In this document: positions 25,607 through 59,502 of the stretch, one piece after another
How the letters are laid out: the number at the start of each line of letters is the position of its first letter
Position numbering within the stretch: position 1 is the stretch's first letter
IMG/VR virus record: IMGVR_UViG_3300021400_000318
Reading direction: 5' to 3' (one strand)
From: an uncultured virus (IMG/VR IMGVR_UViG_3300021400_000318)
Lineage: Duplodnaviria > Heunggongvirae > Uroviricota > Caudoviricetes
DNA length: 64,000 nt
Made by a program: the position numbers and the translations under genes
The notes under the pieces: generated by a model
What the model saw: only the letters and a program-made list of their open reading frames with translations
Told to the model about the DNA's origin: nothing
Database searches by the model: none

Positions 25607-25641
25607 TCGTTTTGATATTCAGAAATTTTGTTTTAACTTTG
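25607..25641 (+). promoter_or_regulatory. class I (early island) promoter
   Basis: tcgttttgatattcagaaa...taactttg; TTTG-N19-TAnnTTTG; five copies. Confidence 0.8.
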
Positions 25642-25670
25642 CCAGAGCAAACTTTTAAAATATTAGAGCA

Positions 25671-25922: not shown

Positions 25923-25936
25923 TAAAGTTAAGAGCA

Positions 25937-26173: not shown

Positions 26174-26185
26174 AGTATCAGAGCA

Positions 26186-26852: not shown

Positions 26853-26882
26853 CCGCCCTGCGTAACTAAATTTATAAGAGCA

Positions 26883-29567: not shown

Positions 29568-29605
29568 CAACAGCATTTAAGTTAAACCCATAAAAGAAAA
29601 GAGCA

Positions 29606-29989
29606 ATGGATAAGTCAAAAGAAATTGAGATTCTGCAATCACTGAAAGGAGATACCTACTTTCAAGATTTCTTCGGAGCACACGACATCGACCAGATGTG
29701 CGAGAACATCAGAAACGACTTCGGTCTTGAATACTGCTGTCAGTTCTACAAGAAGGCCGCTATCTTCGAGCAGAAAGTTAAGGACGCTGAGAAGAAGGCA
29801 AAGGAGGATAAGCAGAACTTCATCAGAGACATCATTGACGGATTCGATGGTAATGTTCCGATGGAGATTTACGACCGTCTTGAAGCCGAGGTTGGAATCC
29901 TGTTTATCATCAACTGGAAACGAGACCAAGAGTATAAGCTGACTGACAAGGAAATCGACTGGCTGATAACTCTGGCCAACAAGAAGTAA
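29606..29989 (+). CDS. hypothetical early protein
   Basis: AGAGCAATG start. Confidence 0.65.
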   Translation: MDKSKEIEILQSLKGDTYFQDFFGAHDIDQMCENIRNDFGLEYCCQFYKKAAIFEQKVKDAEKKAKEDKQNFIRDIIDGFDGNVPMEIYDRLEAEVGILFIINWKRDQEYKLTDKEIDWLITLANKK

Positions 29990-30036
29990 AGGTAACGGGG
30001 AGGCCAACCACCTCCCCACCCTAAAAGATAAGAGCA

Positions 30037-30288
30037 ATGAAAATCGAAGAAAAGAAAATCAAGGATGGTGCCCGTGAGTACAAGTTTGACAACGGTGCAT
30101 GGGTGAAACTCGACATCGACGGAGAGTACGGTTCTTGGGAGTACCAAGAGGATGATGATGAGGAAACCTACATGGAAGGTGGAATCTGGTTTGACGGCAA
30201 GCATATTGAGGACTACGATGGCTGTTTTGAACTGCCAGAGGAAGTCAAGGTTGCATTGAAGGATTTGGGTTTCACCATGGATGATTGA
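30037..30288 (+). CDS. small acidic early protein
   Basis: AGAGCAATG start; D/E-rich, DYDGCFELP. Confidence 0.65.
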   Translation: MKIEEKKIKDGAREYKFDNGAWVKLDIDGEYGSWEYQEDDDEETYMEGGIWFDGKHIEDYDGCFELPEEVKVALKDLGFTMDD

Positions 30289-32634: not shown

Positions 32635-32672
32635 AAAAGTATTTGTTTTTCAAAGAAATTTAACTATCTTTG
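32635..32672 (+). promoter_or_regulatory. class II promoter
   Basis: aaaagtatttgtttttcaaa...tatctttg. Confidence 0.75.
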
Positions 32673-32690
32673 CAGCAAAGTTACAGAACT

Positions 32691-33794
32691 ATGAAGTATG
32701 ACTATCTTATAGTAGGAGCCGGTCTATTCGGTTGCACCTTCGCTCGTTTGGCCACGAACGCAGGCAGAAAATGTATGGTAATTGACAGAAGGCCGCAATT
32801 CGGAGGTAATACGTATTGCGAAGAGATTGATGGAATCACCGTTCACAAGTACGGTCCTCATATCTTTCACACCTCTAATGAGGACGTTTACAGGTTTGTC
32901 ACCTCTCTGGTCAAGGTTGAGCCGTTCACAAACAGCCCCCTTGCTCGCTTTGGAGGAAAGTTGTACAACCTGCCGTTCAACATGAATACGTTCAATCAGA
33001 TGTGGGGTGTCACCACACCTGCCGAGGCAATGAACAAGATTAAGCGTCAGAGTTGGTTTGTAGGTGACATCGAGAATCTGAGAGATAAGGCAATCTCGCT
33101 CGTAGGAAAGGACATCTACAAGAAATTGATTAAGGGCTACACCGAAAAGCAGTGGGGAAAGAAATGCGTTGAACTCCCTGCATCCATCATTACTCGCCTA
33201 CCAGTCAGATTCACGTTCGACAACCGTTATTTTAATGACCGCTATGAGTTTATCCCTGTCGGGGGTTACAACACCCTAACCGATGCACTTCTGAGAGGTA
33301 TAGCGGCTGTACCTTGCGTTGACTTCTTTGATGCTAAGAGAGACGTGTTCGAAATGGCTGAGAAGGTTGTATTCACAGGAAGGATAGATCAGTTCTACGA
33401 CTACAGGTTTGGTGAACTCGAATATCGTTCCCTCCTGTTCAAAAGTAAAGTGCTCGACACAGATAACTTTCAAGGGAATGCAGTCATCAATGATACGAGT
33501 AAGAAGGTCAAGTACACCAGAGTTATTGAGCACCGCCATTTCCAACCTCCGAAGATGAATATCAATAAGACGGTTGTTACTTACGAATATCCTGCATCAG
33601 TCGAAGAAACAGGTGAACCGTACTACCCGATTAACGATGAAAGGAATACAGCCATCTATCAGCAATACAAGGCACTGGCCGATAAGGAAGAAAAAGTGTT
33701 GTTTGGTGGTAGACTGGCAGAGTACAGATATTATGATATGGACGATGTAATAGAATCAGCGATGAAGTTATGGAAATCAGAATTGAACCGATAG
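32691..33794 (+). CDS. glf: UDP-galactopyranose mutase
   Basis: YDYLIVGAGLFG, HKYGPHIFHT, GYTEKQWG, RLPVRFTFDNRYFND, EPYYP, GRLAEYRYYDMD. Confidence 0.95.
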   Translation: MKYDYLIVGAGLFGCTFARLATNAGRKCMVIDRRPQFGGNTYCEEIDGITVHKYGPHIFHTSNEDVYRFVTSLVKVEPFTNSPLARFGGKLYNLPFNMNTFNQMWGVTTPAEAMNKIKRQSWFVGDIENLRDKAISLVGKDIYKKLIKGYTEKQWGKKCVELPASIITRLPVRFTFDNRYFNDRYEFIPVGGYNTLTDALLRGIAAVPCVDFFDAKRDVFEMAEKVVFTGRIDQFYDYRFGELEYRSLLFKSKVLDTDNFQGNAVINDTSKKVKYTRVIEHRHFQPPKMNINKTVVTYEYPASVEETGEPYYPINDERNTAIYQQYKALADKEEKVLFGGRLAEYRYYDMDDVIESAMKLWKSELNR

Positions 33795-34273
33795 ACAGGA
33801 AACATGCGAAAGATACCTGGCAGTATAGGAACGACCCAGACATCTGGAAGTTCACGTCCTGCGATACTCCTTTGCCTGCAACTCTGAACACAGAAGAGCA
33901 GTGCTATATCTTTCGAGGGCAGGACCCAAAGAACAGAATGTATGCCATCATGGTAGATGGCGTGGCCGTAGGAGCTGTTACATTGAAGCAGATTGGCTTT
34001 GGGACAGCCGCCATCGGATATTATATTCTGATGAAAGAACTATGGGGAAACGGCATCTGCAAGGAAGCTGTTCGACAGGTCATGGAGATTGGCTTTGGCG
34101 AGTTGGATCTTGATTTGCTGTACCTCTGGGTACACTCGGATAATGTCGCATCGTTCAAGGTTGCTCGCTCCCTTGGATTCTATAGTGTGGCCATGTCTTT
34201 TACGAACATGAATGTGCATAGACTTGAAATGACAAAGACTGTATGGAAAAGCAAGAAAAACGAATTGAAGTAG
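33770..34273 (+). CDS. GNAT (RimJ/RimL-like) acetyltransferase
   Basis: IGYYI....WGNG, V...N.AS..V...LGF. Confidence 0.85.
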   Translation: MEIRIEPIDRKHAKDTWQYRNDPDIWKFTSCDTPLPATLNTEEQCYIFRGQDPKNRMYAIMVDGVAVGAVTLKQIGFGTAAIGYYILMKELWGNGICKEAVRQVMEIGFGELDLDLLYLWVHSDNVASFKVARSLGFYSVAMSFTNMNVHRLEMTKTVWKSKKNELK

Positions 34274-34857
34274 TAGAACTCAAAGTAAGCGAACTGAACT
34301 ATGAGTTTGAGAACCCACGTAAGCCTCTCACTCCAAAGCGCAAGCAGGCCTTGGAGGAATCTCTGGAGAAGTTAGGTGATTTCGGTGTCATCGTCATTGA
34401 TGAGAAGAATAGTATTCTCTCTGGCAACCAGAGAGTGAAGATACTCCTTTCTCTCGACCCGAACAGGAAGGTGCTCTGTAAGCGTCTCATTGGATATACC
34501 GATGGCGAGAAGAAAGCCGTAAACATCAAAGCCAACACCCATGCAGGTGAATGGGATATGAAGAAACTTGCCGAATGGACTGGCGACCTCCATATCGACC
34601 TCTCAACCGACTTGACCGTATTGAATACCAAGGAGCCAAAGATTAAGGACATGGAACTGATTCGGTACGAGAAGTATGACTACGTGATGATTGTCTGCAG
34701 GAACGAGGTTGACTATAACAACCTCATCCGTGCTCTCGGTATTGAGGATAAGAAAGTACTCATCGCTCATACCAGAGACAAGGACAGAAAGATTAAGGCA
34801 CGTGCCATCTGGTATGATGACATGAAAGCCCAGATTGTACCTAAAAAGAAGAAATGA
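34243..34857 (+). CDS. ParB/Srx-like N-terminal domain protein
   Basis: NPR, SLEKLG, IVIDE...ILSGNQRV, N..AGEWD. Confidence 0.8.
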   Translation: MEKQEKRIEVVELKVSELNYEFENPRKPLTPKRKQALEESLEKLGDFGVIVIDEKNSILSGNQRVKILLSLDPNRKVLCKRLIGYTDGEKKAVNIKANTHAGEWDMKKLAEWTGDLHIDLSTDLTVLNTKEPKIKDMELIRYEKYDYVMIVCRNEVDYNNLIRALGIEDKKVLIAHTRDKDRKIKARAIWYDDMKAQIVPKKKK

Positions 34858-35891
34858 TGAAAGACTTCAATGTTTTGTTTACGTGCTGTGCGAACCACTT
34901 CAAGGAGCGTGCTGACAGCCTAAGAGAGAACGAGGATGGCGTTAAGGTCGGTATCTATGCGGCCAACTGCAATCCAGATAATCTGCCGCCAGACGATTTG
35001 GTTGACGGAAACTTCATCGTACCACCCATCACGGCACCAGAGTACCTTGATAAGATACTCGCAATCTGTCTCAGTCACGGAATAGACATCATCATCCCGA
35101 CTGCTACTGTAGAGTTGCGGATGATGGCAGAGAACAAGGGATTCTTTGAGCGTCACGGTATCAAGGTGTCTGTAGCATCACCAGAGGCTATATCTGTCTT
35201 GAATGACAAAATGGCCTTACAGCGTGCCTACGGCTCTCTCATGCCCATCCAATCCACCCCAAAGACAATAGACGATTTAGCGGACTTCTACAGGCTTCTG
35301 CCGAAAGATTCTGGAGTTTGCTGCAAACTCTCTGACCATGCAGGAGGAAACGGCTTCGCCATTATTGATGATGAAAAGGCAACAGACATCACCCTGTTCA
35401 ACAAGTTCGGGGAGAATACGTATATCAGCAAGGCTACCCTTGCTCAGATTGTATTGAAGAATCCTGGTCGCATCATTGTGCAGGAGTATGTCAAAGGTAT
35501 TGACTTCTCTGTAAGTGTTCTGGCATGGAAAGGTGCTGTTACACATATTGTCGGCTATGCAGGCTACCAGATGAGTTATGGTGCTATCGTGAATGGAGAG
35601 ATACGCTACAACAGCAAGGCTTATGAGATAGCGACGAAGCTGACAAAGGAACTCGGTCTTGATGGTAACGCATGTTTCGACTTCCGCATCAAGGATGACG
35701 GAACGGTGGTGCTTCTGGAGGTAAACCCCAGAGTTAACGCCTCACTGCCATTCGTTTGGAAGGCAGGAGTGAATATGCTGTACCTCAGATGTAAAAATCT
35801 GTATGGTGATTACTCCGACATGTATCAGTACAACAATATCAAGTTTGGACTAAAAATGAAGAAGTATCATGGAAGCAGGTATTTCCTTTAA
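34854..35891 (+). CDS. ATP-grasp ligase
   Basis: DIIIPT..E, NDK, IVQEYVKG, LLEVNPR. Confidence 0.85.
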   Translation: MMKDFNVLFTCCANHFKERADSLRENEDGVKVGIYAANCNPDNLPPDDLVDGNFIVPPITAPEYLDKILAICLSHGIDIIIPTATVELRMMAENKGFFERHGIKVSVASPEAISVLNDKMALQRAYGSLMPIQSTPKTIDDLADFYRLLPKDSGVCCKLSDHAGGNGFAIIDDEKATDITLFNKFGENTYISKATLAQIVLKNPGRIIVQEYVKGIDFSVSVLAWKGAVTHIVGYAGYQMSYGAIVNGEIRYNSKAYEIATKLTKELGLDGNACFDFRIKDDGTVVLLEVNPRVNASLPFVWKAGVNMLYLRCKNLYGDYSDMYQYNNIKFGLKMKKYHGSRYFL

Positions 35892-36603
35892 CATCTATGT
35901 AATGTCCTACCAGAGATATGACCGCATCGTTACCCAGAACCTCTTCGAGTACTGTACGTATGTGGTCAGAGAGGAAGAGGCAGAGAAATACAGGGAGGCA
36001 GGAGTAAAGAACCTGCTCATCATTCCCAAGGACTGTCCTGTCTGGAACTTCATGGACACTCTCTGGTGGACGATCTGGAACACTCCAGAGGACGTTATCT
36101 TCATCGCAGACGATGACATCACTCGTTTCATCTACAGGATGAATAACTGGTTGGCAATAGATACCGCCAACTTCAACAATCCTGTTGAGACGGTGACGGC
36201 AGAGATAGAGCGCATCGCTCAGATTCTTGTTGACCTAAATTTGGGTCTGGCGTATGACGGACCACAGAAAACGCTCTTCGCCTATGACAGAGAATGGAAC
36301 TTCAAAGGAATGCCTGGTCACTGTCGGTGGGTGAACAAGAAGGCTCTCAAAGCCAAGTACGACTGCAAGGACATGGCCTCATCTGATATTGACATGGCCA
36401 TGCAGGAAATGTTGCTCAACCGCATCACCTTGCAGCCGAAGTATTTCCTGTCTGACGCAGGCCAGATGGAAACCAACGCAGGCGGTGAGACGAATACCAG
36501 AGAAGAGACATTCCAAGGCCGTCTGGCGATGGAGAACAAATGGGGTAAGTATTATCAGTATGATGTGCGCAAGAATCAAGCCAAAATCAACATAAAAAGG
36601 TAA
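35869..36603 (+). CDS. GT-A glycosyltransferase, GREB1/TET-associated (TAGT)-like
   Basis: IYVMSYQR, YVVREEE..KY, ADDDI, DID..MQ, N.GG, KWG pattern. Confidence 0.7.
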   Translation: MEAGISFNIYVMSYQRYDRIVTQNLFEYCTYVVREEEAEKYREAGVKNLLIIPKDCPVWNFMDTLWWTIWNTPEDVIFIADDDITRFIYRMNNWLAIDTANFNNPVETVTAEIERIAQILVDLNLGLAYDGPQKTLFAYDREWNFKGMPGHCRWVNKKALKAKYDCKDMASSDIDMAMQEMLLNRITLQPKYFLSDAGQMETNAGGETNTREETFQGRLAMENKWGKYYQYDVRKNQAKINIKR

Positions 36604-36693
36604 AAGAAATTTATTGCGTTAAACTTTGGTAACTATTTGGAAATCAGCTAATTATTTGGTAACTTTGCAAATAAAACCAATAAAGCAAAGAAT

Positions 36694-37695
36694 ATGATGA
36701 ACAAAGGTGGTTATACACGACATTCACACAATATGTTTGAGGTGTCAAGCCTCATTCAGAAAGCGTTAAGGCGTAGGGATGCCAATATGGCTTACTATGC
36801 CGCAAACGAGTTGATACCAAAGTACAGGAACTATCTCTGGAAGAGACTTCTCACTGTATCGGCAGAGGACTGTTTCGACATGATTACTGGCCGTATCGTT
36901 CAACTCCACACACATGACACCAACAAACAGGATGATAAGAACATCGCTGTTGCCGTTTCTACACTGTTGAACGCAAGAAAGAACAGGGATGCAGACTACT
37001 TCGCCTGCAACCTCTTGAACTCCAGAGACACGAAAGATATATCAATCTATTGTGAGGAACTTGTAGATGACAAGACGTGCGCATCCAAGAACGGACATTG
37101 TATGTTTGACCTCGCAATCTGTCTGAGAAACGCTATTGACGCAGGTGATGATGAGTATGCCGGCTATGCCTGCAATGAACTGTTGGTCTATTACAGGAAC
37201 TTCGCTTGGAAAACGCTCATCATGAAAGCAAAGGAAATGGGCTTCGAACCAGTGGTTGCAGAGGTACGTGCTTTAAAGGCCGCAGACGAGATAACAAAGC
37301 AGTCATCTATCCTCTACTATGCCAAAGCCTTAACAACGTTACTAAAAGTCCGCAAATGGCGTAATATCGAAAATTTCCTGCCATCCTTCATATACAATGA
37401 CAAGATAGACCTCAGAATGTTCGACAATGTGCAGTACCGTATACCAGATTACGTCTATGACTGTCATACCTATATTGGCAAGGTGAGAGGCCGCACGAAA
37501 CAGGAGTTTATCGTTGATGAGCAGGCCGCTCTCACTCCACATATACAGGGAGAGTACGATAACGCCAGTTGGTCACATTTCTTCTGGCTGTGCGAACACG
37601 GATTCTATCGGGAGGACTATACTCCGCATCCTGCCAAGGAGCGTATGAAGGAACTTGAAACAGGAACCGTACAACTAAATCTGTTTGGCGAATGA
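36694..37695 (+). CDS. MgsA/RarA C-terminal-like helical repeat protein
   Basis: SLIQKALRR, LWKRLLTVSAED, IPDYVYDCHT. Confidence 0.65.
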   Translation: MMNKGGYTRHSHNMFEVSSLIQKALRRRDANMAYYAANELIPKYRNYLWKRLLTVSAEDCFDMITGRIVQLHTHDTNKQDDKNIAVAVSTLLNARKNRDADYFACNLLNSRDTKDISIYCEELVDDKTCASKNGHCMFDLAICLRNAIDAGDDEYAGYACNELLVYYRNFAWKTLIMKAKEMGFEPVVAEVRALKAADEITKQSSILYYAKALTTLLKVRKWRNIENFLPSFIYNDKIDLRMFDNVQYRIPDYVYDCHTYIGKVRGRTKQEFIVDEQAALTPHIQGEYDNASWSHFFWLCEHGFYREDYTPHPAKERMKELETGTVQLNLFGE

Positions 37696-38075
37696 GAAAA
37701 GTATCAGATGCAGTAGCCGCCAAGTTGGCGGCAAAGACACAACGAAGGAAGAGTAAACTTCTGAAAGCCCTTGCCGAAAGCAAGGGTATCGTTGCGTATG
37801 CCTGCGAGGCTGCAGGTGTAAGCAGAAATACGTATTATGAGTGGCTGAAGAGTGATGATGATTTCAAGCAGAAAGCGGAAGAAATCACCGAAGCAACCCT
37901 TGACAGAGTTGAGGCTAAACTGCTGGAGGCTATCAATGATGAAAATTTAACAGCCATCATTTTCTATCTTAAAACGAAAGGCAGGAACAGAGGCTATGTA
38001 GAGAGGATAGAGAATGAGCACATGGGAAACGCTTTCGAGAAGCTGATGAAGGAATTGCCAGACGAAGAAGAATGA
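37692..38075 (+). CDS. terS: terminase small subunit (HTH)
   Basis: ACEAAGVSRNTYYEW, AIIFYLKTKGRNRGYVE; directly before terL. Confidence 0.85.
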   Translation: MRKVSDAVAAKLAAKTQRRKSKLLKALAESKGIVAYACEAAGVSRNTYYEWLKSDDDFKQKAEEITEATLDRVEAKLLEAINDENLTAIIFYLKTKGRNRGYVERIENEHMGNAFEKLMKELPDEEE

Positions 38076-39586
38076 ACGTAGAGGAAAAGGGAAGAAGCAG
38101 AATGCAGGCATGGAGAAACGACTGGCCACTGTTTGCCAAAGAAGTGCTCCATGCTCGACTTGACGATGAGCAGATAGCGATACTGCGTGCCGTCCAGACT
38201 GAGAGGATGGTTGCTGTCGCTTCTGGAACGGCAAGAGGCAAGGACTATATCGCTGCCGTTGCCGCCATCTGTTTCATGTACCTTACCCCACGTTTCGACA
38301 AAGAAGGAAACCTCGTAAAGAACACGAAGATTGCCATGACAGCACCTACAGGCCGACAGGTGAAGGATATTATGATACCAGAGGTGTCACGTCTTTTCAA
38401 GAAGGCAGGCATCCTCCCTGGCGTTCTGTTATCTAACGGCATCCGCACCACCTATCAAGAATGGTATTTGACTGGCTTCAAATCGTCAGCAGACAACACC
38501 GAGGCTTGGTCTGGATTCCATGCTGTGAACACGATGTTCATAGTCACTGAGGCATCTGGTATTCCAGAGGCCACGTATAATGCCATCGAAGGTAACTTGC
38601 AAGGTAATTCTCGCCTGCTATTAGTATTCAACCCAAACGTAACAACAGGCTATGCAGCGAAAGCCATGAAGTCACCACGTTTTAAGAAGTTCCGTCTAAA
38701 CAGCCTCAACGCAGAGAACGTGGTAAAGAAGAAGAATATCATTCCCGGACAGGTGGACTACGAATGGGTAAAGGATAAGGTGGAGAACTGGGCAACGCCA
38801 ATCCGTCAAGATGAGTTTGATGAAGGCATGGGCGACTTCCGTTGGGAAGGTGCTTTCTACCGTCCTAACGACCTGTTCCGTGTCAAGGTGCTTGGCATGT
38901 TTCCGAAAGTGTCTGAGGATATCCTTATCCCTTACGAATGGGTGGAACTGGCCATCAAGCGTTGGCATAAGTTGAAGGAGGAAGGATTTACCACCAAGAA
39001 ACACGCACGCGTCGGTGTCGATGTCGCAGGCATGGGTAGAGACTGTAGCGTTCTGTTGCCTCGTTACGGATCATGGGTTCCGAAAATCGAGGTTCATCAG
39101 TCTGGAGGAAATGCCGACCACATGAAGATAGCAGGAAAGACTGTCATCTATCTGCAAGATGAGAAAGCCAAGGCGTTCATTGACACCATCGGTGAGGGCG
39201 CAGGTGTATATTCCCGACTGCAGGAGTTGGAGTATTATAACTCATATTCCTGCAAGAACTCGGAAGGAGCGAGAGGCCTGCATGACATCACAGAGCAGTA
39301 CACGTTCGCCAACATGAGGGCGTATCTCTTCTGGTGTGTTAGGGACTGGTTGAATCCGAAGAATGGCTTTGCACCCGCACTGCCTCCAGATGACCTGTTA
39401 GTTGAAGAGGCTACAGATATCCACTGGTCATTCCTCAGCAACGGCTCGATAATCATTGAGAAGAAGGATGAAATCAAGAAGCGTCTGAAACGCTCTCCAG
39501 ACCGCTTTGATGCTCTGGCCATGACATTTTATCCACATGATTATGACTACGCAAATGATGAAAAGTTGCTAAATAATTTGCTGTAA
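38072..39586 (+). CDS. terL: terminase large subunit
   Basis: SGTARGKD, TAPTGRQ, EASG, NPN, GVDVAGMG.D, SPDRFDAL. Confidence 0.92.
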   Translation: MNVEEKGRSRMQAWRNDWPLFAKEVLHARLDDEQIAILRAVQTERMVAVASGTARGKDYIAAVAAICFMYLTPRFDKEGNLVKNTKIAMTAPTGRQVKDIMIPEVSRLFKKAGILPGVLLSNGIRTTYQEWYLTGFKSSADNTEAWSGFHAVNTMFIVTEASGIPEATYNAIEGNLQGNSRLLLVFNPNVTTGYAAKAMKSPRFKKFRLNSLNAENVVKKKNIIPGQVDYEWVKDKVENWATPIRQDEFDEGMGDFRWEGAFYRPNDLFRVKVLGMFPKVSEDILIPYEWVELAIKRWHKLKEEGFTTKKHARVGVDVAGMGRDCSVLLPRYGSWVPKIEVHQSGGNADHMKIAGKTVIYLQDEKAKAFIDTIGEGAGVYSRLQELEYYNSYSCKNSEGARGLHDITEQYTFANMRAYLFWCVRDWLNPKNGFAPALPPDDLLVEEATDIHWSFLSNGSIIIEKKDEIKKRLKRSPDRFDALAMTFYPHDYDYANDEKLLNNLL

Positions 39587-39623
39587 TTAAGTAAGATTAA
39601 AAAAGTTTTGTAACTTTGCAACC

Positions 39624-39691
39624 GAAATCGTTTCTTTTGACGATTTCATTGCTCTTAGTGCTTCGGTTCGTGACGAATAGGAGCACTTTTT
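39624..39691 (+). ncRNA. putative small RNA antisense to the AGAGCAATG translation-start motif
   Basis: taactttg -7 box at 39611-39618; hairpin gaaatcgt/acgatttc; unpaired attgctctt; terminator agtgcttc...ggagcact-tttt; complementary to at least 18 gene starts. Confidence 0.75.
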
Positions 39692-39709
39692 CTGTTAATA
39701 AGCGTTATT

Positions 39710-39940
39710 GGCCACTGGATGCAATCAATCGTTAAGCAACCGTTAAAACTCCGTTAGCATTAACTAATCTTGACAAAGGGAAAGTCAAGTTAAGTTAATG
39801 ATTTGTTAAATCCTTCTCCTAAAGTTCTATAAAAGTTCCAAAAACGGCCACCCTTATACTTATCCATCCGCATGGAATTAAGGCCACTATGAGGATTTTG
39901 CCCAAAACGGTTGAAATGTGCAAAAAGTTATCTGTTAATC
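39710..39940 (+). repeat. dispersed intergenic repeat A, copy 3
   Basis: 25 bp identical (39813-39837) to 51917-51941; cccttatacttatcc; gaggattttgcccaaaa. Confidence 0.85.
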
Positions 39941-39971
39941 TTCTGTAATGTATTGATAATTAAAAGTTTAA

Positions 39972-40006
39972 TCGTTTTGACATTCAGAAAATAATGTGTA
40001 ACTTTG
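39972..40006 (+). promoter_or_regulatory. class I promoter
   Basis: tcgttttgacattcagaaa...taactttg; 41 bp (39998-40038) identical to 52123-52163. Confidence 0.8.
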
Positions 40007-40047
40007 CCAGAGCAAACAGCAATAAAATAACTTAAAAGTAAAGAGCA

Positions 40048-40290
40048 ATGGAAACGTCAAGAATTAGTTTGAATCAGATTGAGGTTGACACAGCAACCTA
40101 TCGTTGGAACCTCGGTAGAGCACCCAAAGGAAAAGGCCAGTGGTATTTCGCCATCGGTAACAGGAGAGAAGCAATGGATGACATCACGAAAGCGTTTGCC
40201 ACAGGGTATATGTCTTACACGGATGCCGTCAAGGTTGCTAAGAGAGAAGCCCAAAAGAAGGGCGTTACTACCATCTACGTCTTACCGTAA
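40048..40290 (+). CDS. hypothetical early protein
   Basis: AGAGCAATG start; GRAPKGKGQWYF. Confidence 0.65.
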   Translation: METSRISLNQIEVDTATYRWNLGRAPKGKGQWYFAIGNRREAMDDITKAFATGYMSYTDAVKVAKREAQKKGVTTIYVLP

Positions 40291-40496
40291 TGCAGAAAGA
40301 TATGGAAAAATGGTATGAAGTCAAGCAGGCAGGCGTGGTCCCTTGCATGGTCAACCCAGAGGAACTGAAGAAGGATCACGGATGGATGATAGCCCACTGT
40401 TTCAAAGGTAGGCTGATATTCGAGAACTACAGCAGGGCGATGCTCTGTTGGTATGAGAGAAAGGATAATAAGAACTGGCCACTGCCAGAAAACTAA
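40290..40496 (+). CDS. hypothetical protein
   Basis: TAATG coupling. Confidence 0.5.
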   Translation: MQKDMEKWYEVKQAGVVPCMVNPEELKKDHGWMIAHCFKGRLIFENYSRAMLCWYERKDNKNWPLPEN

Positions 40497-40508
40497 AGAA
40501 TAAGAGCA

Positions 40509-40751
40509 ATGAAACTGATAGGAACGTATAAGATACCAGAGTATGCCATCTGTGCCATAGAATATGGTGACAACACCTGCATGACGGCAGAGGATGACAA
40601 GCTGATGAAAGATTTCCTCGAAAGAGAGTTTCCGAATGGATATGTGGTTGACTGGCATACGAACGATCCGCAAGGTGAGCCGTATTTCTCCAGTAACCCT
40701 GCCTTCGGGCTACCAACGACTGTAGTGGATGCAGATTTTTATGAACCCTAA
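40509..40751 (+). CDS. hypothetical early protein
   Basis: AGAGCAATG start; IPEYAICAIEYGD, PYFSSNPAFGL. Confidence 0.65.
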   Translation: MKLIGTYKIPEYAICAIEYGDNTCMTAEDDKLMKDFLEREFPNGYVVDWHTNDPQGEPYFSSNPAFGLPTTVVDADFYEP

Positions 40752-40764
40752 AAGTATAAGAGCA

Positions 40765-41775
40765 ATGAAATCAGAATTAGTAGTAGAGAAGTTTGCTGAC
40801 TTGATAATAGAGCGGATGGAACAGATGAAAGAAACGAAATGGGAGAAAGGTTGGATTGGTACCACGTTTGGAGAAATGCCGATGAACATCAGAGGCAGGG
40901 AGTATAACGGAACGAACGCGTTCCTGCTTTTCCTTCTTGCAAGCATGAAGGACTGGAAGTACCCCCTGTTTGCAACCTTCCACCAGATTAAGGAACTTGG
41001 AGGAAGTATCAACAAGGGGGCAGAATCGTTCCCTGTACTCTACTGGAAGATTGTGTATAAGACAAAGGATGGTGAGAAGATTGATAGTCTCGATGGACTT
41101 TCCAGAGAAGAGAGAAAAGCCTGTACGTACTATCCTGTGTTGAGGTCGTATAACGTATTCAACATCAGTCAGACCAACTTGGAGGAAGTTGCACCGAAGG
41201 TCATAGAGAAGCTGAAGGCCAAGTTCCATATTGAAGAGCCTCCGAAGGACACTCTTGGAATGTATGAGAATGCAGACATTGACGATATGCTGACGTACCA
41301 GAAGTGGCTTTGTCCCATTCACTACCAGAATCCGTCAAATGAAGCCTACTACCGTCCAAGTAAGGATGAGATAGTAGTGCCTATGAAAACGCAGTTCTAC
41401 GATGGCACAAGCGAAGAGAAGAAGTATATCAGCGGAATGCGGTTCTATGATGTCCTTCTGCACGAAATGGCTCACTCAACAGGTCATGACAGCCGTCTGG
41501 CCAGAGGCAAGGGCAATCCTTTTGGCTCTAAGGAGTATGCCAAGGAGGAACTGGTTGCAGAACTCACCGCAGCCATCATCGGCCAGACACTCGGCTTTGA
41601 CCCTAAGATTATGGATAACAACGCATGTTATCTGGATTCGTGGATAAAGACCATGAAGAAAGAACCAAAGTTTATCGTCTCTGTCCTGGCTGATGTCAAC
41701 AAGGCAGCTCAGATGATTCTTGAAGTAGTGAATAATGAACATAAAGTATTAGTAGAAACGGAGGAAGAATCATGA
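40765..41775 (+). CDS. ardC: ArdC-like antirestriction protein (ssDNA-binding + zincin-like domain)
   Basis: W.KGW, Y.G.N, TFHQ....GG...KG, Y.VFN..QT, AYY.P..D.I..P, LHEMAHSTGH, YAKEELVAEL. Confidence 0.85.
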   Translation: MKSELVVEKFADLIIERMEQMKETKWEKGWIGTTFGEMPMNIRGREYNGTNAFLLFLLASMKDWKYPLFATFHQIKELGGSINKGAESFPVLYWKIVYKTKDGEKIDSLDGLSREERKACTYYPVLRSYNVFNISQTNLEEVAPKVIEKLKAKFHIEEPPKDTLGMYENADIDDMLTYQKWLCPIHYQNPSNEAYYRPSKDEIVVPMKTQFYDGTSEEKKYISGMRFYDVLLHEMAHSTGHDSRLARGKGNPFGSKEYAKEELVAELTAAIIGQTLGFDPKIMDNNACYLDSWIKTMKKEPKFIVSVLADVNKAAQMILEVVNNEHKVLVETEEES

Positions 41776-41963
41776 AGTATCAAGTAAAGATAATAGAAAC
41801 CCTCTCTCGCATTGTCGAGGTGGATGCTCAGAATAGCGATGAGGCTTGGGATAAGGTGAAGGCACAATATGATAACGAAGAGATTGTTCTGGGCTCAGAA
41901 GATTTCGATGGATATGAGATATATGGTCTTGGGAAGGTCAAGGATGGAAACGAAAACCAGTAA
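41772..41963 (+). CDS. DpnD/PcfM-like small protein
   Basis: Y.V.I.ETL.R.VEV.A...EA...V...Y..EEIVL..EDF. Confidence 0.75.
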   Translation: MKYQVKIIETLSRIVEVDAQNSDEAWDKVKAQYDNEEIVLGSEDFDGYEIYGLGKVKDGNENQ

Positions 41964-42183
41964 GGCTATAGGATTGTTCAAGGATGGCAGGTTGCGGGAT
42001 GCGCTTGCCATCTTCAAAACCTTCAAGATTGGCTTCACGAAGGATGAGCGCAGGACCATCCAGATAGCCAGTGAGACACTGAATGGATCTGGCCAGTTCT
42101 ACCAGAGACTTGGCATTGATACCGCTCTGGAGGTGCAAAAGTCAATAACTGTTATCAAGCAGAAGTACATGAAAGTCCTATAG
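41944..42183 (+). CDS. hypothetical protein
   Basis: KTSKA...AL.IF..F.IGF..FYQ.LGID. Confidence 0.6.
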   Translation: METKTSKAIGLFKDGRLRDALAIFKTFKIGFTKDERRTIQIASETLNGSGQFYQRLGIDTALEVQKSITVIKQKYMKVL

Positions 42184-42220
42184 TTAATCTTAGTTTATGT
42201 GCCGAAAATCTCTGGAAGCA

Positions 42221-42255
42221 TCGTTTTGATATTCAGAAATAATTGGTTAACTTTG
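42221..42255 (+). promoter_or_regulatory. class I promoter
   Basis: tcgttttgatattcagaaa...taactttg. Confidence 0.8.
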
Positions 42256-42284
42256 CCTGTGCAAACCTATAAAATTAAAGAGCA

Positions 42285-42524
42285 ATGAAAGATAGAAGTC
42301 AAAAGGCGAAGTTCGCTAACAGAATCGCAAGATTCGACAGAAACACCCAACAGGTTGTGGTTGAGTTCAAAGATGGAAGTAGCATGGTAGTAGAAAAGAA
42401 GGATGGTGAATACATTTTCTGTAATGAAGGAAAGTGCATCACAGGCTTCGACAACATCATGCATGCCGCTGAGAAAATGATAGATGATAAGTTAGTATCA
42501 GATATCTACATTGACAGTTTGTAA
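42285..42524 (+). CDS. hypothetical early protein
   Basis: AGAGCAATG start. Confidence 0.6.
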   Translation: MKDRSQKAKFANRIARFDRNTQQVVVEFKDGSSMVVEKKDGEYIFCNEGKCITGFDNIMHAAEKMIDDKLVSDIYIDSL

Positions 42525-42541
42525 CTTAAAAGTAAAGAGCA

Positions 42542-42748
42542 ATGAAATTAGTCGAAATCAAGTTCAAGAAGTTTGGAAAGGAGTACACCAAGAAAGGTGC
42601 TTACATCTATTCCGTCAAGAAGAATGGTCAGCGTTACGCTCATCCTGCATGGTACGAGGCAAGAGGAAACGAGCAGACGCAGGAAGATGTTCTGACCCGC
42701 CTCCAGACGTTGAATCCAAATTCACGTTTTGAGATAGCAGAAAGATAG
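42542..42748 (+). CDS. hypothetical early protein
   Basis: AGAGCAATG start. Confidence 0.6.
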   Translation: MKLVEIKFKKFGKEYTKKGAYIYSVKKNGQRYAHPAWYEARGNEQTQEDVLTRLQTLNPNSRFEIAER

Positions 42749-42771
42749 TTAAACCCCTAAAAGATAGAGCA

Positions 42772-43128
42772 ATGAAATTAGTTACGAAAGAAGTAGAGAA
42801 ACGATTGCAGAAATATCCGCTCTACAGCCAAGACGGCAAGAAGAAGGAAGCAATCTGCGTAGTGAAGTTCTTTATGTGTGGTGTCAACTACACGTGGTAC
42901 GTTCTGGAAGCCGATTTGGAGAATAAGATTCTCTATGGCATCACCATCAACAGCCACGGTGAAGCTGAATACGGCTACACCAGTCTGTCTGAACTTGAAA
43001 CAGTCAAGAACAGTTGGGGGCTTGGAGTGGAGCGAGACCTGTACTTCGAGCCAACGAAGTTGTCAGACATTGACGATGACATCTTGAAGAAGTTCTTGGA
43101 TAACCTTTATTCGGAGGATGCAGCATGA
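42772..43128 (+). CDS. DUF2958-like protein
   Basis: PLYSQD...VKFF...TWYV.E...EYGY.SL.EL...VERDLYF.P. Confidence 0.8.
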   Translation: MKLVTKEVEKRLQKYPLYSQDGKKKEAICVVKFFMCGVNYTWYVLEADLENKILYGITINSHGEAEYGYTSLSELETVKNSWGLGVERDLYFEPTKLSDIDDDILKKFLDNLYSEDAA

Positions 43129-43833: not shown

Positions 43834-44211
43834 ATGGCACAGGAAGTAAATATCAGTCAGTCGAACATCAAGATAGAACTGACACATATGATGAAGCAGT
43901 ACTACGATTTTAAGGAGAAGTATCCAGAGGCATTGTTACTCTTCAGATGCGGTGATTTCTACGAAACCTACGAGGAAGATGCTGTAGAAAGTGCAAAGAT
44001 ACTCGGTATCACTCTCACCAAGCGGACTTCTGACAAGACGAAGATGGCAGGATTCCCTCATCACGCCCTCGACACCTATCTGCCGAAACTGATAAGAGCC
44101 GGCAAGAGGGTTGCCATCGTTGACCAGTTGGAAGACCCCAGACTTACCAAGAAGTTAGTGAAAAGAGGAATAACAGAATTAGTAACACCAAATAAAAACA
44201 AAGAGCAATGA
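43834..44211 (+). CDS. stand-alone MutS domain I (mismatch-recognition) protein
   Basis: MMKQY...[21 protein letters not shown]...A.ILGITLT...MAGFP.HALD.YL.KL..G..VAI.DQ. Confidence 0.9.
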
Positions 44212-47230: not shown

Positions 47231-47276
47231 CAAGTAATGTAAGAGCAATGATATTGTTAAATTAAAACGATTGATT

Positions 47277-48455
47277 ATGAATGTAAAGAACATCATTTCG
47301 ATGGATGAACTGTCGTATGTGTCACGTCAGTCATTCACAGAGAAGATTGCCATCCAAAGACTGGCAACCTATGACACACAGTTACAGCAGAAACGTGACA
47401 ATCTCGCACCTATCTCCGAAGCACAGGCCAAGGAGATTAAGGACTTCTGGAGCAAGAAACTCATGTGGCATGACGGACTTCTAAATATGAAGTATTACGA
47501 TGTCTATAATGCCGTTGAGCAGGACAGGTCAAAGTTGAAGCTGTATATCCCAGACAGTTTCTTTTATGCGTTCATTGATGAGTACTTCACCAATCCACAG
47601 CGCAGTACGGCTCTTGATGACAAGAATATGTATGACATGTACTTCCCGAACGTCAAGCGTCCAAAGACTATTGCACGTAAGGTTGACGATGTGTACTTGA
47701 ATGAGAACTATGAGCCGATTTCTGTCGAGGACTTCATCAAAACCTGCAAGGAGCACAAGGAGGTCATCGTTAAGTCTGCCATCGGATCGTGGGGAGGCCA
47801 CGGTGTGAAGTTCTGGGATGCCGAGAAAGATAGCGTAGAGACACTTCTGAACTATATCTATACCCAGAATGCAGAGTATTTCAGAGGCTCATCAGTGTAT
47901 AAGCAGTACATCGTACAGGAGGTGTTTAAACAGCACAAGGACTTGGCAGACATCAATTCGAGCAGTGTCAACACCATCCGAGTGATGACCCTGTTCCGTA
48001 ATGGCAATGTCAAGGCTCTGTCATCAGTGCTTCGCATGGGTGTTGACGGCAGTCGTGTAGATAACTGCAGTAGCGGTGGAATTGTTTGCGGCATCACAGA
48101 GGATGGGCACTTGAAGGAAGTTGCCTATGATGGAGCGGCCAACCGCTTCTACCGCCATCCGCAGGGTGTCGAGTTCATAGGACGTGTTGTTCCTGCATAC
48201 GCTGAGTGTGTTGCTATGGCAGAGAAATTGGCGTACCGCTTCTATGGAGCCTCACGCCTAATCTCTTGGGATTTCGCTGTTGCGGAAGATGGAACGCCCA
48301 CACTGATTGAAATGAATATCTCGTTTGGTGAGTTGGACTTCCATCAGTTGTGTAACGGACCTATCTTCGGTGATGACACAAAGGACATCATTGATGAAGT
48401 CTTTGACCACAGCCATACTTTAAAGGAAATCATTAAGTTGTACGATAAAGAGTAA
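47277..48455 (+). CDS. sugar-transfer-associated ATP-grasp protein
   Basis: LDDK, P.TI, GGHGV, VQE...QH.....N.SSVNTIRV.T, DN.SSGG, WDFA..EDG.P.LIE.N. Confidence 0.8.
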   Translation: MNVKNIISMDELSYVSRQSFTEKIAIQRLATYDTQLQQKRDNLAPISEAQAKEIKDFWSKKLMWHDGLLNMKYYDVYNAVEQDRSKLKLYIPDSFFYAFIDEYFTNPQRSTALDDKNMYDMYFPNVKRPKTIARKVDDVYLNENYEPISVEDFIKTCKEHKEVIVKSAIGSWGGHGVKFWDAEKDSVETLLNYIYTQNAEYFRGSSVYKQYIVQEVFKQHKDLADINSSSVNTIRVMTLFRNGNVKALSSVLRMGVDGSRVDNCSSGGIVCGITEDGHLKEVAYDGAANRFYRHPQGVEFIGRVVPAYAECVAMAEKLAYRFYGASRLISWDFAVAEDGTPTLIEMNISFGELDFHQLCNGPIFGDDTKDIIDEVFDHSHTLKEIIKLYDKE

Positions 48456-49025: not shown

Positions 49026-49398
49026 ATACCCTGCCATCGCCTATGGCAAACTGACGTTTGAAGAGAGCCGTTACCAGAGAGGTGACAAGTGGTGGTATGC
49101 CTCCACCCTTCTACGTGCCTGCCATGAAGCAGAACTGGAGCCGTTCGAGTACCCTGTTGCCTGCTATGATATGGCAAACAAGTATTTCCCTCTGGATAAT
49201 ATGGATGATTTCGTCTGGCAGATGAAGCGGACGTTGGAAGCAGACTATGAGAACTACCCAATAATATTGGATGATTTAGGCCAGGTTGCCGATGGCAATC
49301 ATCGCATCTGCCATGCCATTCTGGATGGTAAGACAAGCGTTCTCGCCTACAGGCTCCAGACGATGCCAGAACCAGACTTTATAAAGGAAGAAAGTTAA
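49012..49398 (+). CDS. ParB/Srx-like small protein
   Basis: YPIILD..G..ADG.HR..HA. Confidence 0.7.
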   Translation: MKSSKYPAIAYGKLTFEESRYQRGDKWWYASTLLRACHEAELEPFEYPVACYDMANKYFPLDNMDDFVWQMKRTLEADYENYPIILDDLGQVADGNHRICHAILDGKTSVLAYRLQTMPEPDFIKEES

Positions 49399-51497
49399 TG
49401 GCAAGAATAAGGACACCGAACCAGAAGAAAGCGTATAATGCTCTGAACAACCGACTGACACAGTACGTTAGTCAAGTTCAGAGCATCTATGATATGGCCA
49501 ACAGGAGGATGGCAGAGATAGCCGCCTCTACTGACTATGACGGAGAGGTGCCCTTCTCATTCAAGGACTACCCAGAGTTAGCCGAAGCTGTCAAGGACGT
49601 ACAGGCTCAGTTTGTCAATGAGATTGGAACTACCATCATGCGTGGAACCTCAGAGGAATGGAGGCAGAGTAATCTCATACAGGACCTATTGGCCGATAAG
49701 GTATTGAAGCACTATCGGGCGCAGGTACGAGGCAAGCGTTTCAAGCAGTACTACCAGACGAACAGTGATGCCCTCAAAGCCTTCCAGAACCGCAGAGACA
49801 GAGGAATGAACCTGTCTGCCAAACTCTGGGGACAGGCTGACGAATATACGATGGAAACAGAGGCTGCAATTTCCTGCACTATCAGCAATGCCATCGAGAA
49901 GGGAATGTCGGCTATAACGTTGTCAAAACGTCTCTCAAAGTACCTGCAGGACTACCCTTCACTACTGCATGATTATTGGGAAACCTACGGTAAGGCAGCG
50001 AATATCCATGACTGCGAGTATCGAAGCATCCGTCTGGCACGATCTGAAATCAATATGGCCTATCGCACTGCCGAGCAGGAGCGTTGGAAGCAGTTTGATT
50101 TTGTCCTCGGGTATGAAATCAAGCTGTCCGGTAGCCATCCGCACACAGACATCTGTGACGATTTGAAGGGCAGGTACCCAAAGGATTTCGTCTGGACTGG
50201 TTGGCACCCTAACGATATGTGCTATGCTGTTCCTATCATTATGAGTGAGGAAGAATACTGGAGTGAAAACAGAAGAAAATCTGACGAGCAGATTACGGAC
50301 GTTCCTCAGCCATACAAGGATTGGGTTGCAGGAAATGTCAACAGGATAAAGTCTGCTGACAGAAACGGAACATTACCATATTTCCTCAAAGAGAATCCAG
50401 ATTTCCGAAAATACATGGGTACAGACTATGTGGCAGAATGGAGGCATCGTACCAGAAATGCAGATGAAATACAACTTGCATGGAATAACAGGAAGGCCAT
50501 GAAAGAAAGTTCTGACTATTTCCCTCTTACCAACCTTCGTAAACATGCACACTATGTAGGCTATGATATGTCTGAGTTTGAACAGTTCATCCGCACTACT
50601 GATTTGAAGTATGATAAGAATGGAATAAGTAAGCTGTTCGAGGACGCATACGATAAGTACGAGGCAGAGTATTTCGAGAAGAGAGCAAGCGTCAACGCCT
50701 CTTATACACGTCTGAATGGACTTCTGAACTCTGCCAAACTTTGTGTCGGCCCATACAGGGTGCAGTCTGCTATAAACGAAATGGAATTGGCTATAGGCAA
50801 TTATTCAACTATCACGGCACATGTTGGCCAGTCGTATTCCTCCAAGAGGTTTGATGAAGCGTACCGGTCAGCAAGAAAGAAACTGAATGCAGCCGCCAAA
50901 GCCGCAAACACAGCCAACGATGCGGATATAGAAAATGCTCTCGGCATCAAGAAGGGACACCCGATGCCTTTCCTGGAGGCTGACCAAGGAAGGGGAAATA
51001 TCCGTTATACTGGTCGTTTGTTAAATCCATACTCCATCAACTGTCAAGTATGTGTCGTAGCAGACGAACTCCGTAGAAGAGGATATGATGTGACTGCCCT
51101 TGGAAGAATCGAAGGTAGCGGAATGGTTGATAAGATTGCTCACCATACAGAGTTACCTTGGTTTGAAAAGAACACTGGTAGAATACCCATCAAGAAACGT
51201 ATCGGAATGTCTGGAAAATCTGTCAGCGACATCTACATTGAACTGGAAACAATGACAACAGCCAAAGGACGTTATCATATTGATTGGGGATGGGCAGGAG
51301 GCACAGAAGGCCATATTGTCTGCCTCGAACGCAGGGCAAATGGAACGCTTCGTTACTATGACCCACAGAACGGACAGCCGTATGACATCTTTGATATTAT
51401 CAGAAGAAGTAACAGAAACTTCCCTCTGAATGTATTGAAGGTTGATGATTTGCTTGTTGACCCGCGAATTATTAGGTCAATAGTTAAACCTTTGTAA
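49398..51497 (+). CDS. minor head (MuF-like) protein with C-terminal papain-fold toxin-like domain
   Basis: RLARSEINMAYR, CDDL.G.YPK.F.WTGWHP..C N-half; C-terminal NCQVCVVA.ELRRRGYDV, GH, YYDPQ. Confidence 0.75.
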   Translation: MARIRTPNQKKAYNALNNRLTQYVSQVQSIYDMANRRMAEIAASTDYDGEVPFSFKDYPELAEAVKDVQAQFVNEIGTTIMRGTSEEWRQSNLIQDLLADKVLKHYRAQVRGKRFKQYYQTNSDALKAFQNRRDRGMNLSAKLWGQADEYTMETEAAISCTISNAIEKGMSAITLSKRLSKYLQDYPSLLHDYWETYGKAANIHDCEYRSIRLARSEINMAYRTAEQERWKQFDFVLGYEIKLSGSHPHTDICDDLKGRYPKDFVWTGWHPNDMCYAVPIIMSEEEYWSENRRKSDEQITDVPQPYKDWVAGNVNRIKSADRNGTLPYFLKENPDFRKYMGTDYVAEWRHRTRNADEIQLAWNNRKAMKESSDYFPLTNLRKHAHYVGYDMSEFEQFIRTTDLKYDKNGISKLFEDAYDKYEAEYFEKRASVNASYTRLNGLLNSAKLCVGPYRVQSAINEMELAIGNYSTITAHVGQSYSSKRFDEAYRSARKKLNAAAKAANTANDADIENALGIKKGHPMPFLEADQGRGNIRYTGRLLNPYSINCQVCVVADELRRRGYDVTALGRIEGSGMVDKIAHHTELPWFEKNTGRIPIKKRIGMSGKSVSDIYIELETMTTAKGRYHIDWGWAGGTEGHIVCLERRANGTLRYYDPQNGQPYDIFDIIRRSNRNFPLNVLKVDDLLVDPRIIRSIVKPL

Positions 51498-52096: not shown

Positions 52097-52131
52097 TCGT
52101 TTTGATATTCAGAAATAAAGCGGTAACTTTG
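52097..52131 (+). promoter_or_regulatory. class I promoter
   Basis: tcgttttgatattcagaaa...taactttg. Confidence 0.8.
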
Positions 52132-52172
52132 CCAGAGCAAACAGCAATAAAATAACTTAAAAGAATTGAGCA

Positions 52173-53092: not shown

Positions 53093-53110
53093 CCATCAAT
53101 ATTAAGAGCA

Positions 53111-59480: not shown

Positions 59481-59502
59481 CTTAAATCAAAATTGTCGCA
59501 GT

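Follow-up and report, generated by a model that had tools for sequence, protein, structure and literature searches.

A candidate trans-acting antisense RNA downstream of terL that mirrors a start-codon tag of about twenty genes in a Bacteroidota-type temperate phage

The window analysed here is the whole 64,000 nucleotide (nt) stretch of IMG/VR virus record IMGVR_UViG_3300021400_000318, from an uncultured member of the Caudoviricetes, a Bacteroidota-type temperate phage. A compact unit at positions 39611-39691 (+ strand), shortly past the stop codon of the terminase gene terL, is very likely a real RNA gene, and its reverse complement contains a short tag, AGAGCAATG, that includes the start codon and is repeated at about twenty phage genes. 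The reading favored here is a conserved trans-acting antisense small RNA (sRNA) that occludes the tagged start codons, and a probability of roughly 0.6 is given to it; base-pairing control of the tagged starts, as such, is probable. Because an invariant exposed stretch of the RNA is the exact mirror of the tag, one RNA probably switches off translation of the tagged genes together.

The unit begins 25 nt past the terL stop codon (39586) with a promoter-like box, TAACTTTG (39611-39618), that matches TAnnTTTG, the Bacteroidota -7 promoter consensus according to the accessible text of PMC7366714. The RNA would start near 39623-39625. Hairpin 1 (gaaatcgt/acgatttc, GAAAUCGU / ACGAUUUC) occupies 39624-39647 and has 8-9 bp, with 9 bp in the minimum free energy fold; it is followed by the linker attgctctt (AUUGCUCUU, 39648-39656), which is unpaired in that fold. 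The seed UUUCAUUGCUCUU lies at 39644-39656, and its core CAUUGCUCU, at 39647-39655, is the mirror of AGAGCAAUG; the last C of hairpin 1 is the C of the CAU within the seed. An intrinsic terminator completes the unit (39657-39691), with an outer stem (39657-39664/39680-39687), an inner stem with a GUGA-containing loop, and a run of five T (39687-39691). A sequence-only reading of this DNA had described the same succession of box, hairpin, linker and terminator, and each element was found where it had been placed.

As in sRNAs of the GibS type, discussed below, a short non-coding unit, without a consistent open reading frame on either strand, is bounded by its own promoter-like box, here a consensus match, and by an intrinsic terminator. 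A terminator scan of 39300-40300 reported hairpin 1 (39624-39647) as the sole terminator-like site on the + strand, leaving the terminator at 39657-39691 unreported, and found none between the terL stop and the unit, as is the case for sRNAs derived from 3′ untranslated regions (3′ UTRs). Since no terminator precedes the unit, the 3′ end of the terL mRNA would also carry the seed. The promoter-like box directly ahead of the RNA makes independent transcription likely as well, and the two origins proposed earlier, an own promoter or the terminase 3′ UTR, are both compatible with what was found, the box being conserved among relatives.

Exact copies of AGAGCAATG number 23 in the window, 21 on the + strand and two on the - strand (39655 and 10393), where about 0.5 exact copies per 128 kb are expected by our own arithmetic. 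With up to one mismatch there are 38 matches versus 22.0 +/- 4.3 in shuffled sequences, and none of 100 shuffles reaches 38. The tag is the top 9-mer ending in ATG, both in the window and in most related loci. It heads open reading frames (ORFs) of 68-392 amino acids (aa) at 18 of the 21 + strand sites, which bears out the earlier claim that the unit matches the start motif of some twenty genes. Roughly one in five + strand ORFs beyond 10.6 kb is tagged (about 18 of 94 in an approximate greedy count), and the consensus of the tagged sites is taAAaa.TAAGAGCAATGAAA. Eight large ORF starts that were checked, including those of TerS, TerL and portal, are all without the tag.

The duplex between the sRNA and its sites covers at least positions -8 to +6 relative to the AUG. 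Hybrid energies, calculated without unfolding costs, have a median of -22.0 kcal/mol at the 21 tagged sites (range -17.4 to -35.5) compared with -10.95 kcal/mol at 72 other ORF starts. Thus complementarity of the GibS type is present at functional sites, with 21 exact 9-nt matches on the + strand and perfect pairing of up to 19 nt. The pairing lengths first put forward (19 nt at one site, 17 nt at three, 16 nt at two, 15 nt at two and 14 nt at one) were all recomputed alike. Tagged genes are located mostly, not exclusively, in the replication and accessory regions: eleven tags lie at 10.8-30.3 kb and six at 40-43 kb (the ArdC cluster), with single tags at 44208, 47248, 53111 and 61818. The earlier description of the proposed regulon as purely early or replicative is therefore too narrow.

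The 14-mer TAAGAGCAATGAAA was also sought in five host genomes, where all 12 copies are on a prophage-bearing contig, and two Prevotella 16S rRNAs contain no complement to the tag of 7 nt or more, their best duplexes being -7.9 and -9.6 kcal/mol. The confinement of the 14-mer to prophage contigs and the lack of a 16S complement indicate that the tag belongs to the phage and not to the translation system of the host. Pairing with 16S rRNA was accordingly rejected.

Relatives of TerL were fetched as 80 viral-contig loci and 80 genome loci (designated by L numbers), and a covariance model, R1, was built from 34 distinct copies of the unit (alignment A1). R1 matches directly after terL on the + strand in 66 of 81 viral-contig sources (E <= 8e-5) and in 12 of the 80 genome loci (E <= 3.4e-4); L165 would be a thirteenth, at E 0.03, and the window has one match, 39622-39690, of 74 bits. 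Genome records with the unit belong to Prevotella, Bacteroidaceae, Parabacteroides and Paludibacteraceae, and TerL identity among carriers is about 65-99%. Most relatives with at least about 65% TerL identity share one layout past the terL stop: a TAnnTTTG box, a variable hairpin, UUCAUUGCUCUU, and a terminator with a GUGA loop. The box-like sequence stands at an equal distance ahead of hairpin 1 and in some relatives overlaps the stop codon of terL; the terminator loop has a conserved GUGA, and the stem is followed by a T run on the + strand. Neither the seed RNA nor the tag is present in more distant TerL relatives (Chryseobacterium, Emticicia, Chitinophaga, Pedobacter and others). In one locus (L300:11500-11620) the top of the terminator hairpin is inverted, with CCGACTTTCACAAGCC in place of GGCTTGTGAAAGTCGG; the stem is kept and the GUGA loop becomes its complement.

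The stems show covariation. In the model-fitted alignment A4 (45 hits, 43 distinct), which leans towards the model, changes on both sides are found in 16 of 21 pairs, with hairpin 1 contributing 5 of its 8 pairs and the terminator 11 of its 13, and 77.5% of cells are paired versus 62.4% in shuffles. The covariation score is 0.483; shuffles give 0.230, with none of 500 as high, and sliding the partners lowers it to 0.11-0.15. An alignment made with MAFFT only gives 0.39 versus 0.21 in shuffles, again with 0 of 500 reaching the observed value. As in GibS-type RNAs with a conserved unpaired seed, the seed columns UUCAUUGCUC are invariant in 41-43 of the 43 distinct copies while the stems diverge.

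These alignments also bear on whether the unit is an RNA gene at all. It could instead be the terL terminator with a chance or minus-strand copy of the tag on a small ORF, or the tag could be a site for host 16S rRNA; the minus-strand ATG does open an ORF of 20 codons in the window. However, across 44 copies the mirrored ORF ranges from 3 to 62 codons and encodes 37 distinct, unrelated peptides, and its ATG is lost in L136 and L093; this turnover of length and peptide, together with the lost ATG, shows that it is not a gene, and it was discarded as a candidate. G-U and U-G pairs fill 120 cells versus 40 for A-C and C-A, an excess that fits only the + strand as the RNA strand. With the 16S rRNA result given above, this explanation is highly improbable.

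Neither seed RNA scaffold, the one after terL or a second one described next, matches any Rfam family. Rfam 15, including the c4 clan CL00128, was run on the whole window at the gathering threshold and gave only a tRNA at 59408; at E <= 10 the region 39400-40100 has chance-level matches only, of 14-20 bits versus cut-offs of 38-99 bits. In six related loci Rfam detected tRNAs and one c4-2 RNA, elsewhere in the locus. Literature searches likewise returned no description of the RNA or the tag, and sequence strings retrieved primer-type matches only, in a coverage that left out most subscription journals. The earlier remark that no described phage system of this architecture was known to its author agrees with these searches.

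A second scaffold, unrelated to the first and about 113 nt long (type 2), is found 1-10 kb downstream of terL in many relatives. It has a TAnnTTTG box, a covarying 5′ hairpin GCGUAUGAAG..UACGC, a variable middle hairpin and a terminator, and its middle loop shows CAUUGCUC in 15 distinct sequences from 41 loci. The corresponding model, R2, matches 60 of 81 viral sources and 11 of 80 genome loci; examples are L096:19942-20056, L151:18949-19061 and L129:12641-12763. Ten loci without the first RNA (L096, L097, L098, L125, L151, L152, L154-L156 and L163) carry the seed on type 2, and there another gene directly follows terL. Conversely, in the group L129-L150 type 2 has lost the seed and the first RNA keeps it. 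The window resembles this latter group: its type 2 homologue at 54454-54556 (+ strand; R2 40.4 bits, E 5e-6; box TATCTTTG upstream) has a loop that reads CUUUGCUCA, a degenerate seed, and its first RNA keeps the seed. All 65 loci with at least three tags keep the seed on at least one scaffold. Alternative pairing is possible in type 2, since a 3′ segment within its terminator is similar to the 5′ arm of the first hairpin.

The conserved stretch might instead serve another partner, such as a protein, or RNA stability, with the match to the tag left over from an inverted copy of a gene start. The reverse complement (TAAGAGCAATGAAATCGT) does resemble a gene start, and some targets (25671 and 52173) open with codons identical to the hairpin's 5′ arm (ATGAAATCGT). 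A fossil, however, would not remain invariant in 41-43 of 43 copies as both stems turn over, and this one would have to reappear on a second, unrelated scaffold and to decay just where the tag is missing. Such an origin is considered quite unlikely.

Co-occurrence of seed and tag was scored in 137 loci of at least 15 kb, shorter ones being dropped and many near-duplicates remaining, with tags counted as AGAGCAATG on the gene strand. At least three tags are present in 65 of 78 loci with a seed RNA and in 0 of 59 without, and 46 of these 59 have no tag at all; relatives that keep the tag and lack the complementary locus were thus looked for, and no seed-less locus reaches three tags. Among unique ORF starts with AGCAATG, 208 of 299 have the bases AG directly before it where a seed RNA is present, versus 8 of 75 in the other loci. 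In locus L175 the seed is CAUUGCUUU, a C>U change, and its starts read AAAGCAATG (AA) three times, GAAGCAATG (GA) once and AGAGCAATG (AG) never, for which the chance is about 0.01 against a 70% AG baseline (own arithmetic). L237 and L238 are the same phage as L175; a search of its relatives gave only this phage, so that a single lineage provides the compensatory case. No tag is present within +/-10 kb in the L093/L315 lineage, where two different drifted forms of the seed occur on a partly retained scaffold. Distant relatives have other enriched 9-mers (L209, L216, L228, L194 and others), which were considered as alternative start tags and rejected, being tandem or CRISPR-like repeats or scattered sites.

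Several observations weigh against occlusion by a conserved antisense RNA. Three of the 21 + strand tags (47248, 27668 and 61818) head only ORFs of 5, 12 and 42 codons. L119 has AAAGCAATG at three starts though both its RNAs keep the C seed; the compensatory changes that had been anticipated are seen in the L175 lineage and fail here. L085, L158, L172 and L184 keep the RNA and have only 0-3 tags within +/-10 kb. All seed changes are C>U, which keep G-U pairing, yet this is also the commonest mutation in A+T-rich DNA. On a TerL tree (FastTree, 118 rows) the seed-RNA state changes only 7 times, so that relatedness confounds the co-occurrence; of only 3 independent supported contrasts, about 2.2 have the tag changing in the same direction and none in the opposite one, a comparison of low power (sign test p 0.25-1). 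The flanks of the seed were said to co-evolve with different targets, and here the result is mixed: the window-type flank TTAGTG has at least 4 extra matches on 4 of 73 own targets versus 1 of 99 targets of other classes, TTGCCA has 0 of 16, and TTATGT gives 0.45 on its own targets versus 0.07-0.23 elsewhere. Flank co-evolution is thus weakly suggested at most. Finally, contigs from four RNA runs (contigs, not reads) cover parts of terS/terL and some downstream genes in 37000-43000 at 90-99% likeness and nothing at 39613-40600; contigs cannot show small RNAs, and the lack of cover therefore says little either way.

The following mechanism is proposed for the antisense RNA. Positions 39624-39691 would encode an approximately 68-nt trans-acting phage sRNA with a TAnnTTTG promoter of its own, placed within the 3′ end of terL or immediately past it, and the same seed would be present on the 3′ end of the terS-terL mRNA. 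The 5′ hairpin and the GUGA-loop terminator would hold out the invariant UUUCAUUGCUCUU, which would pair with (UA)AGAGCAAUG(AAA) around the start codon of about 20 phage mRNAs. A duplex over the AUG would keep off the 30S subunit and the initiator tRNA, as should follow where the AUG is covered in a host without Shine-Dalgarno (SD) pairing. The whole tagged set would be repressed together, and mRNA decay would probably be faster. As for timing, a dosage or temporal brake on the replication and accessory genes, set once transcription of the terminase operon is on, is favored; terminase transcripts that end with the seed would couple such a brake to late transcription. Transcription of the unit, pairing in the cell, repression as its sign and the timing are what we infer from the sequence comparisons.

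The accessible text of PMC7366714 describes the phylum as lacking SD pairing, with initiation relying on an open, A-rich start region, and GibS as repressing by pairing across start codons; for this reason occlusion of the start is the most economical reading. Use of the RNA as a translation guide, once offered as an alternative, finds no support, since the AUG itself lies within the paired region. The pairing could also be real with an outcome other than occlusion, namely cleavage at gene junctions (for example by RNase III on duplexes of 14-19 bp), mRNA stabilization or processing, or tethering of ribosomes for re-initiation. Tags usually stand 9-21 nt past the stop codon of the upstream gene in tightly packed operons, and the perfect duplexes of 14-19 nt would suit such roles. 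However, the AUG and the next codon lie within the duplex, which is hard to square with activation; no nuclease partner was identified, and the only tested Bacteroides case in the available part of PMC7366714 represses. An outcome of this kind is thought unlikely.

A role in prophage immunity or superinfection exclusion should also be considered, since c4 RNA acts in trans on Ant synthesis, as described in the accessible part of PMC8546580. In this case RNA from the lysogen would silence the tagged genes of its own leaky prophage and of incoming related phages, like c4 of P1/P7 and CI of P4. The phage is temperate, with an integrase gene at 9014-10264 on the minus strand (Pfam scan), the sRNA promoter is without the palindrome TAACTTTGCCAGAGCAAA common to four operon promoters described below, and a relative has a c4-2 RNA (RF02944, 61.9 bits; L089:17701-17776), separate from both seed RNAs, which indicates that RNA-based control exists in this phage group. 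Immunity determinants, however, usually diversify into specificities. Here seed and tag are the same across lineages of only 65-75% TerL identity and several host genera, and this invariance argues against a role in immunity specificity and fits a code frozen by many targets. In addition, the gene is located at the end of the terminase operon, outside the lysogeny module. Immunity is therefore an improbable role.

A broader form of start-codon occlusion can be envisaged, an address tag plus a mirror RNA, by which phages of hosts with weak or absent SD pairing would gate a chosen fifth of the genome. The RNA would be kept on at least one of two interchangeable scaffolds, and the code would be frozen across host genera because some 20 targets must change together. 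This generalization is tentative, and its chances are put below even. If occlusion is correct, a single 68-nt RNA controls translation of about twenty genes, including those for recombination, helicase, replication and anti-restriction functions, in a phage family that is abundant among gut Bacteroidales, those of ruminants included. The tagged genes would form the first phage regulon based on an RNA-read tag embedded in the start codon. The system would show post-transcriptional timing in phages of hosts without SD pairing and would supply an orthogonal tag/anti-tag pair for translation control in Bacteroides and Prevotella.

The individual tags, all on the + strand unless stated, are as follows, with perfect pairing in nt where given. 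The first, at 10799-10807, starts a 70-aa ORF (start 10805; 17 nt), and that at 15670-15678 a Sak4-like AAA_24 gene (ATG 15676, 314 aa; 17 nt). The ResIII/Helicase_C helicase, located at 20426, has its tag at 20465-20473 (tagged ATG 20471; 14 nt), and the longest pairing, 19 nt at 23356-23374, is with the tag at 23363-23371, an in-frame ATG of a DUF6633 gene. A run of tags follows at 25665-25673 (83-aa ORF, 16 nt), 25931-25939 (78-aa ORF, 17 nt), 26180-26188 (95-aa ORF, 9 nt) and 26877-26885 (336-aa ORF, phrog_11581, 15 nt); the tag at 27662-27670 has only the 12-codon ORF, within the gene at 26883-27893. Two more are at 29600-29608 (127-aa ORF, 10 nt) and 30031-30039 (83-aa ORF, 14 nt).

Downstream of the sRNA, tags are found at 40042-40050 (80-aa ORF), 40503-40511 (80-aa ORF, 14 nt), and 40759-40767, the start of an ArdC-like anti-restriction gene at 40765 (336 aa from the tagged ATG; 16 nt). 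These are followed by 42279-42287 (79-aa ORF), 42536-42544 (68-aa ORF, 14 nt), 42766-42774 (118-aa ORF, 13 nt) and 44202-44210 (213-aa ORF, phrog_17519, 12 nt). The tag at 47242-47250 opens the 5-codon ORF just ahead of an ATP-grasp gene. A variant tag, TGAGCAATG, is at 52167-52175 (110-aa ORF; 15 nt perfect, 52168-52182), and exact tags are again at 53105-53113 (165-aa ORF, 14 nt) and 61812-61820, the latter on the 42-codon ORF, which is out of frame inside the long ORF 60455-64000.

The sole other minus-oriented tag (10385-10393) heads a 12-codon ORF 123 nt upstream of the integrase start, in an attP-like region. It was examined as a second sRNA and rejected, its fold being no better than shuffles (z 0.15) and having no strong model match. 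The attP-like region (10265-10600), beside the integrase gene, has TTGCGGT repeats at 10270-10330 and 10545-10590, with a fragment resembling a tRNA 3′ end between them on the minus strand (about 10425-10480).

Four near-identical promoter-like sites are present at 25634-25651, 39999-40016, 42248-42265 and 52124-52141, with the sequence TAACTTTGCC(A/T)G(A/T)GCAAA. They form a palindrome, TTTGC-N4-GCAAA, over the -7 box and stand about 35-45 nt ahead of a tagged first gene (the ORFs tagged at 25665, 40042, 42279 and 52167). With up to one mismatch the site has 7 matches on the two strands versus 0.36 expected. The palindrome may be an operator or two face-to-face -7 boxes.

TerS is encoded at 37692-38075 and TerL at 38072-39586, a 504-aa ORF that is assigned by PHROGs (phrog_2, E 6e-28) and has no match in Pfam. 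A blastn search of deposited phages with 38000-41000 gave no match, and in a tblastn search with TerL all 347 deposited phage records have less than 60% identity, about 30% in the best ones listed; a single viral collection, in contrast, yielded more than 545 relatives of TerL. Ruminant gut metagenome runs contain DNA of the window (20 runs listed). Between 30 and 37 kb are C5 methylase, sugar and ATP-grasp genes, and the portal gene is at 45776. A reverse transcriptase gene (RVT_1, 4811-5956) is close to a 933-aa ORF (42-2843) without a Pfam match, and the two may constitute a diversity-generating retroelement beside a tail-fibre-like gene. Unusual cargo (32670-37695, 47271-48455 and 49398-51497) includes UDP-galactopyranose mutase, two ATP-grasp genes, one of them placed between portal and head genes, and a protein of 699 aa whose C-terminal domain is a Gln_amidase (papain-fold glutamine deamidase). 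The phage also carries a tRNA-Lys with anticodon UUU (59408-59481), and in the tagged genes the second codon is most often AAA.

Among known systems, small RNAs in the 3′ UTRs of enterobacterial genes (the CpxQ, SroC and DapZ type) have a seed between stop codon and terminator, so that the 3′ end of the parent mRNA carries the regulator. The unit described here differs in that a promoter-like box directly precedes the RNA. P4 CI RNA is a small structured phage RNA that blocks expression in trans. The c4 RNA of P1/P7 (Rfam clan CL00128) is similarly a small structured phage RNA whose pairing in trans blocks expression of a phage mRNA, according to the accessible text of PMC8546580. However, c4 has a single operon as its target, icd-ant, from which it is itself processed, and acts there at two short sites, whereas about 20 dispersed targets are proposed here, the site is the start codon itself, and there is no Rfam match.

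GibS of Bacteroides thetaiotaomicron is similar in phylum, promoter type, intrinsic terminator, conserved single-stranded seed and pairing with the start codons of mRNAs without SD, as far as the available part of PMC7366714 describes it. GibS is chromosomal, with two validated targets and imperfect pairing (PMC7366714, same part), and has no sequence or Rfam relationship to the unit; in contrast, the present RNA is phage-borne and faces one shared, near-exact tag of 9-14 nt around the AUG in about a fifth of the genome. RegA and RegB of T4 also resemble the proposed system, in that one factor acts on the initiation regions of about 30 early mRNAs and shuts the class together through a short shared element over the AUG (RegA) or the SD (RegB), as given in the accessible text of PMC3014915. 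Unlike the RNA proposed here, with its near-exact element, RegA and RegB are proteins, and the sites of RegA have a loose definition. In a scan of 45 window ORFs versus Pfam or PHROGs, which was not exhaustive, none was named a translational repressor.

The nearest known systems also include the start-associated sequences (SAS) of Cluster K mycobacteriophages. In the accessible portion of PMC3203893 these are described as a one-orientation, phage-specific motif at 13-19 mostly non-structural gene starts, absent from the host and linked to unrelated gene families, with one opposite-orientation copy in each K1 genome. The single orientation, phage specificity and one inverted copy are shared with the present tag. 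However, the SAS is a 13-bp sequence, GGGATAGGAGCCC, that stands 3-9 bp upstream of the start and contains an SD core, and the window tag AGAGCAATG is not of this form; it includes the ATG, in a host without SD pairing. No RNA partner for the SAS is proposed in the available parts of PMC3203893 and PMC11373665, and the latter, in 2024, still calls the function unknown. The inverted SAS of Anaya (L312:39871-39883, record ~59870-59882) lies in a 385-nt gene-free gap between gp96 and gp97, within the loop of a strong hairpin (161-nt fold, z -3.99), and the gap is 88% identical in Adephagia (L386:1948-2379). As a lead, this gap could encode an anti-SAS RNA parallel to that of the window. By analogy, the logic of an address tag and its mirror RNA may explain the start-associated sequences of Cluster K, and it offers a testable idea for motifs that, in the accessible parts of these reports, have been without explanation since 2011.

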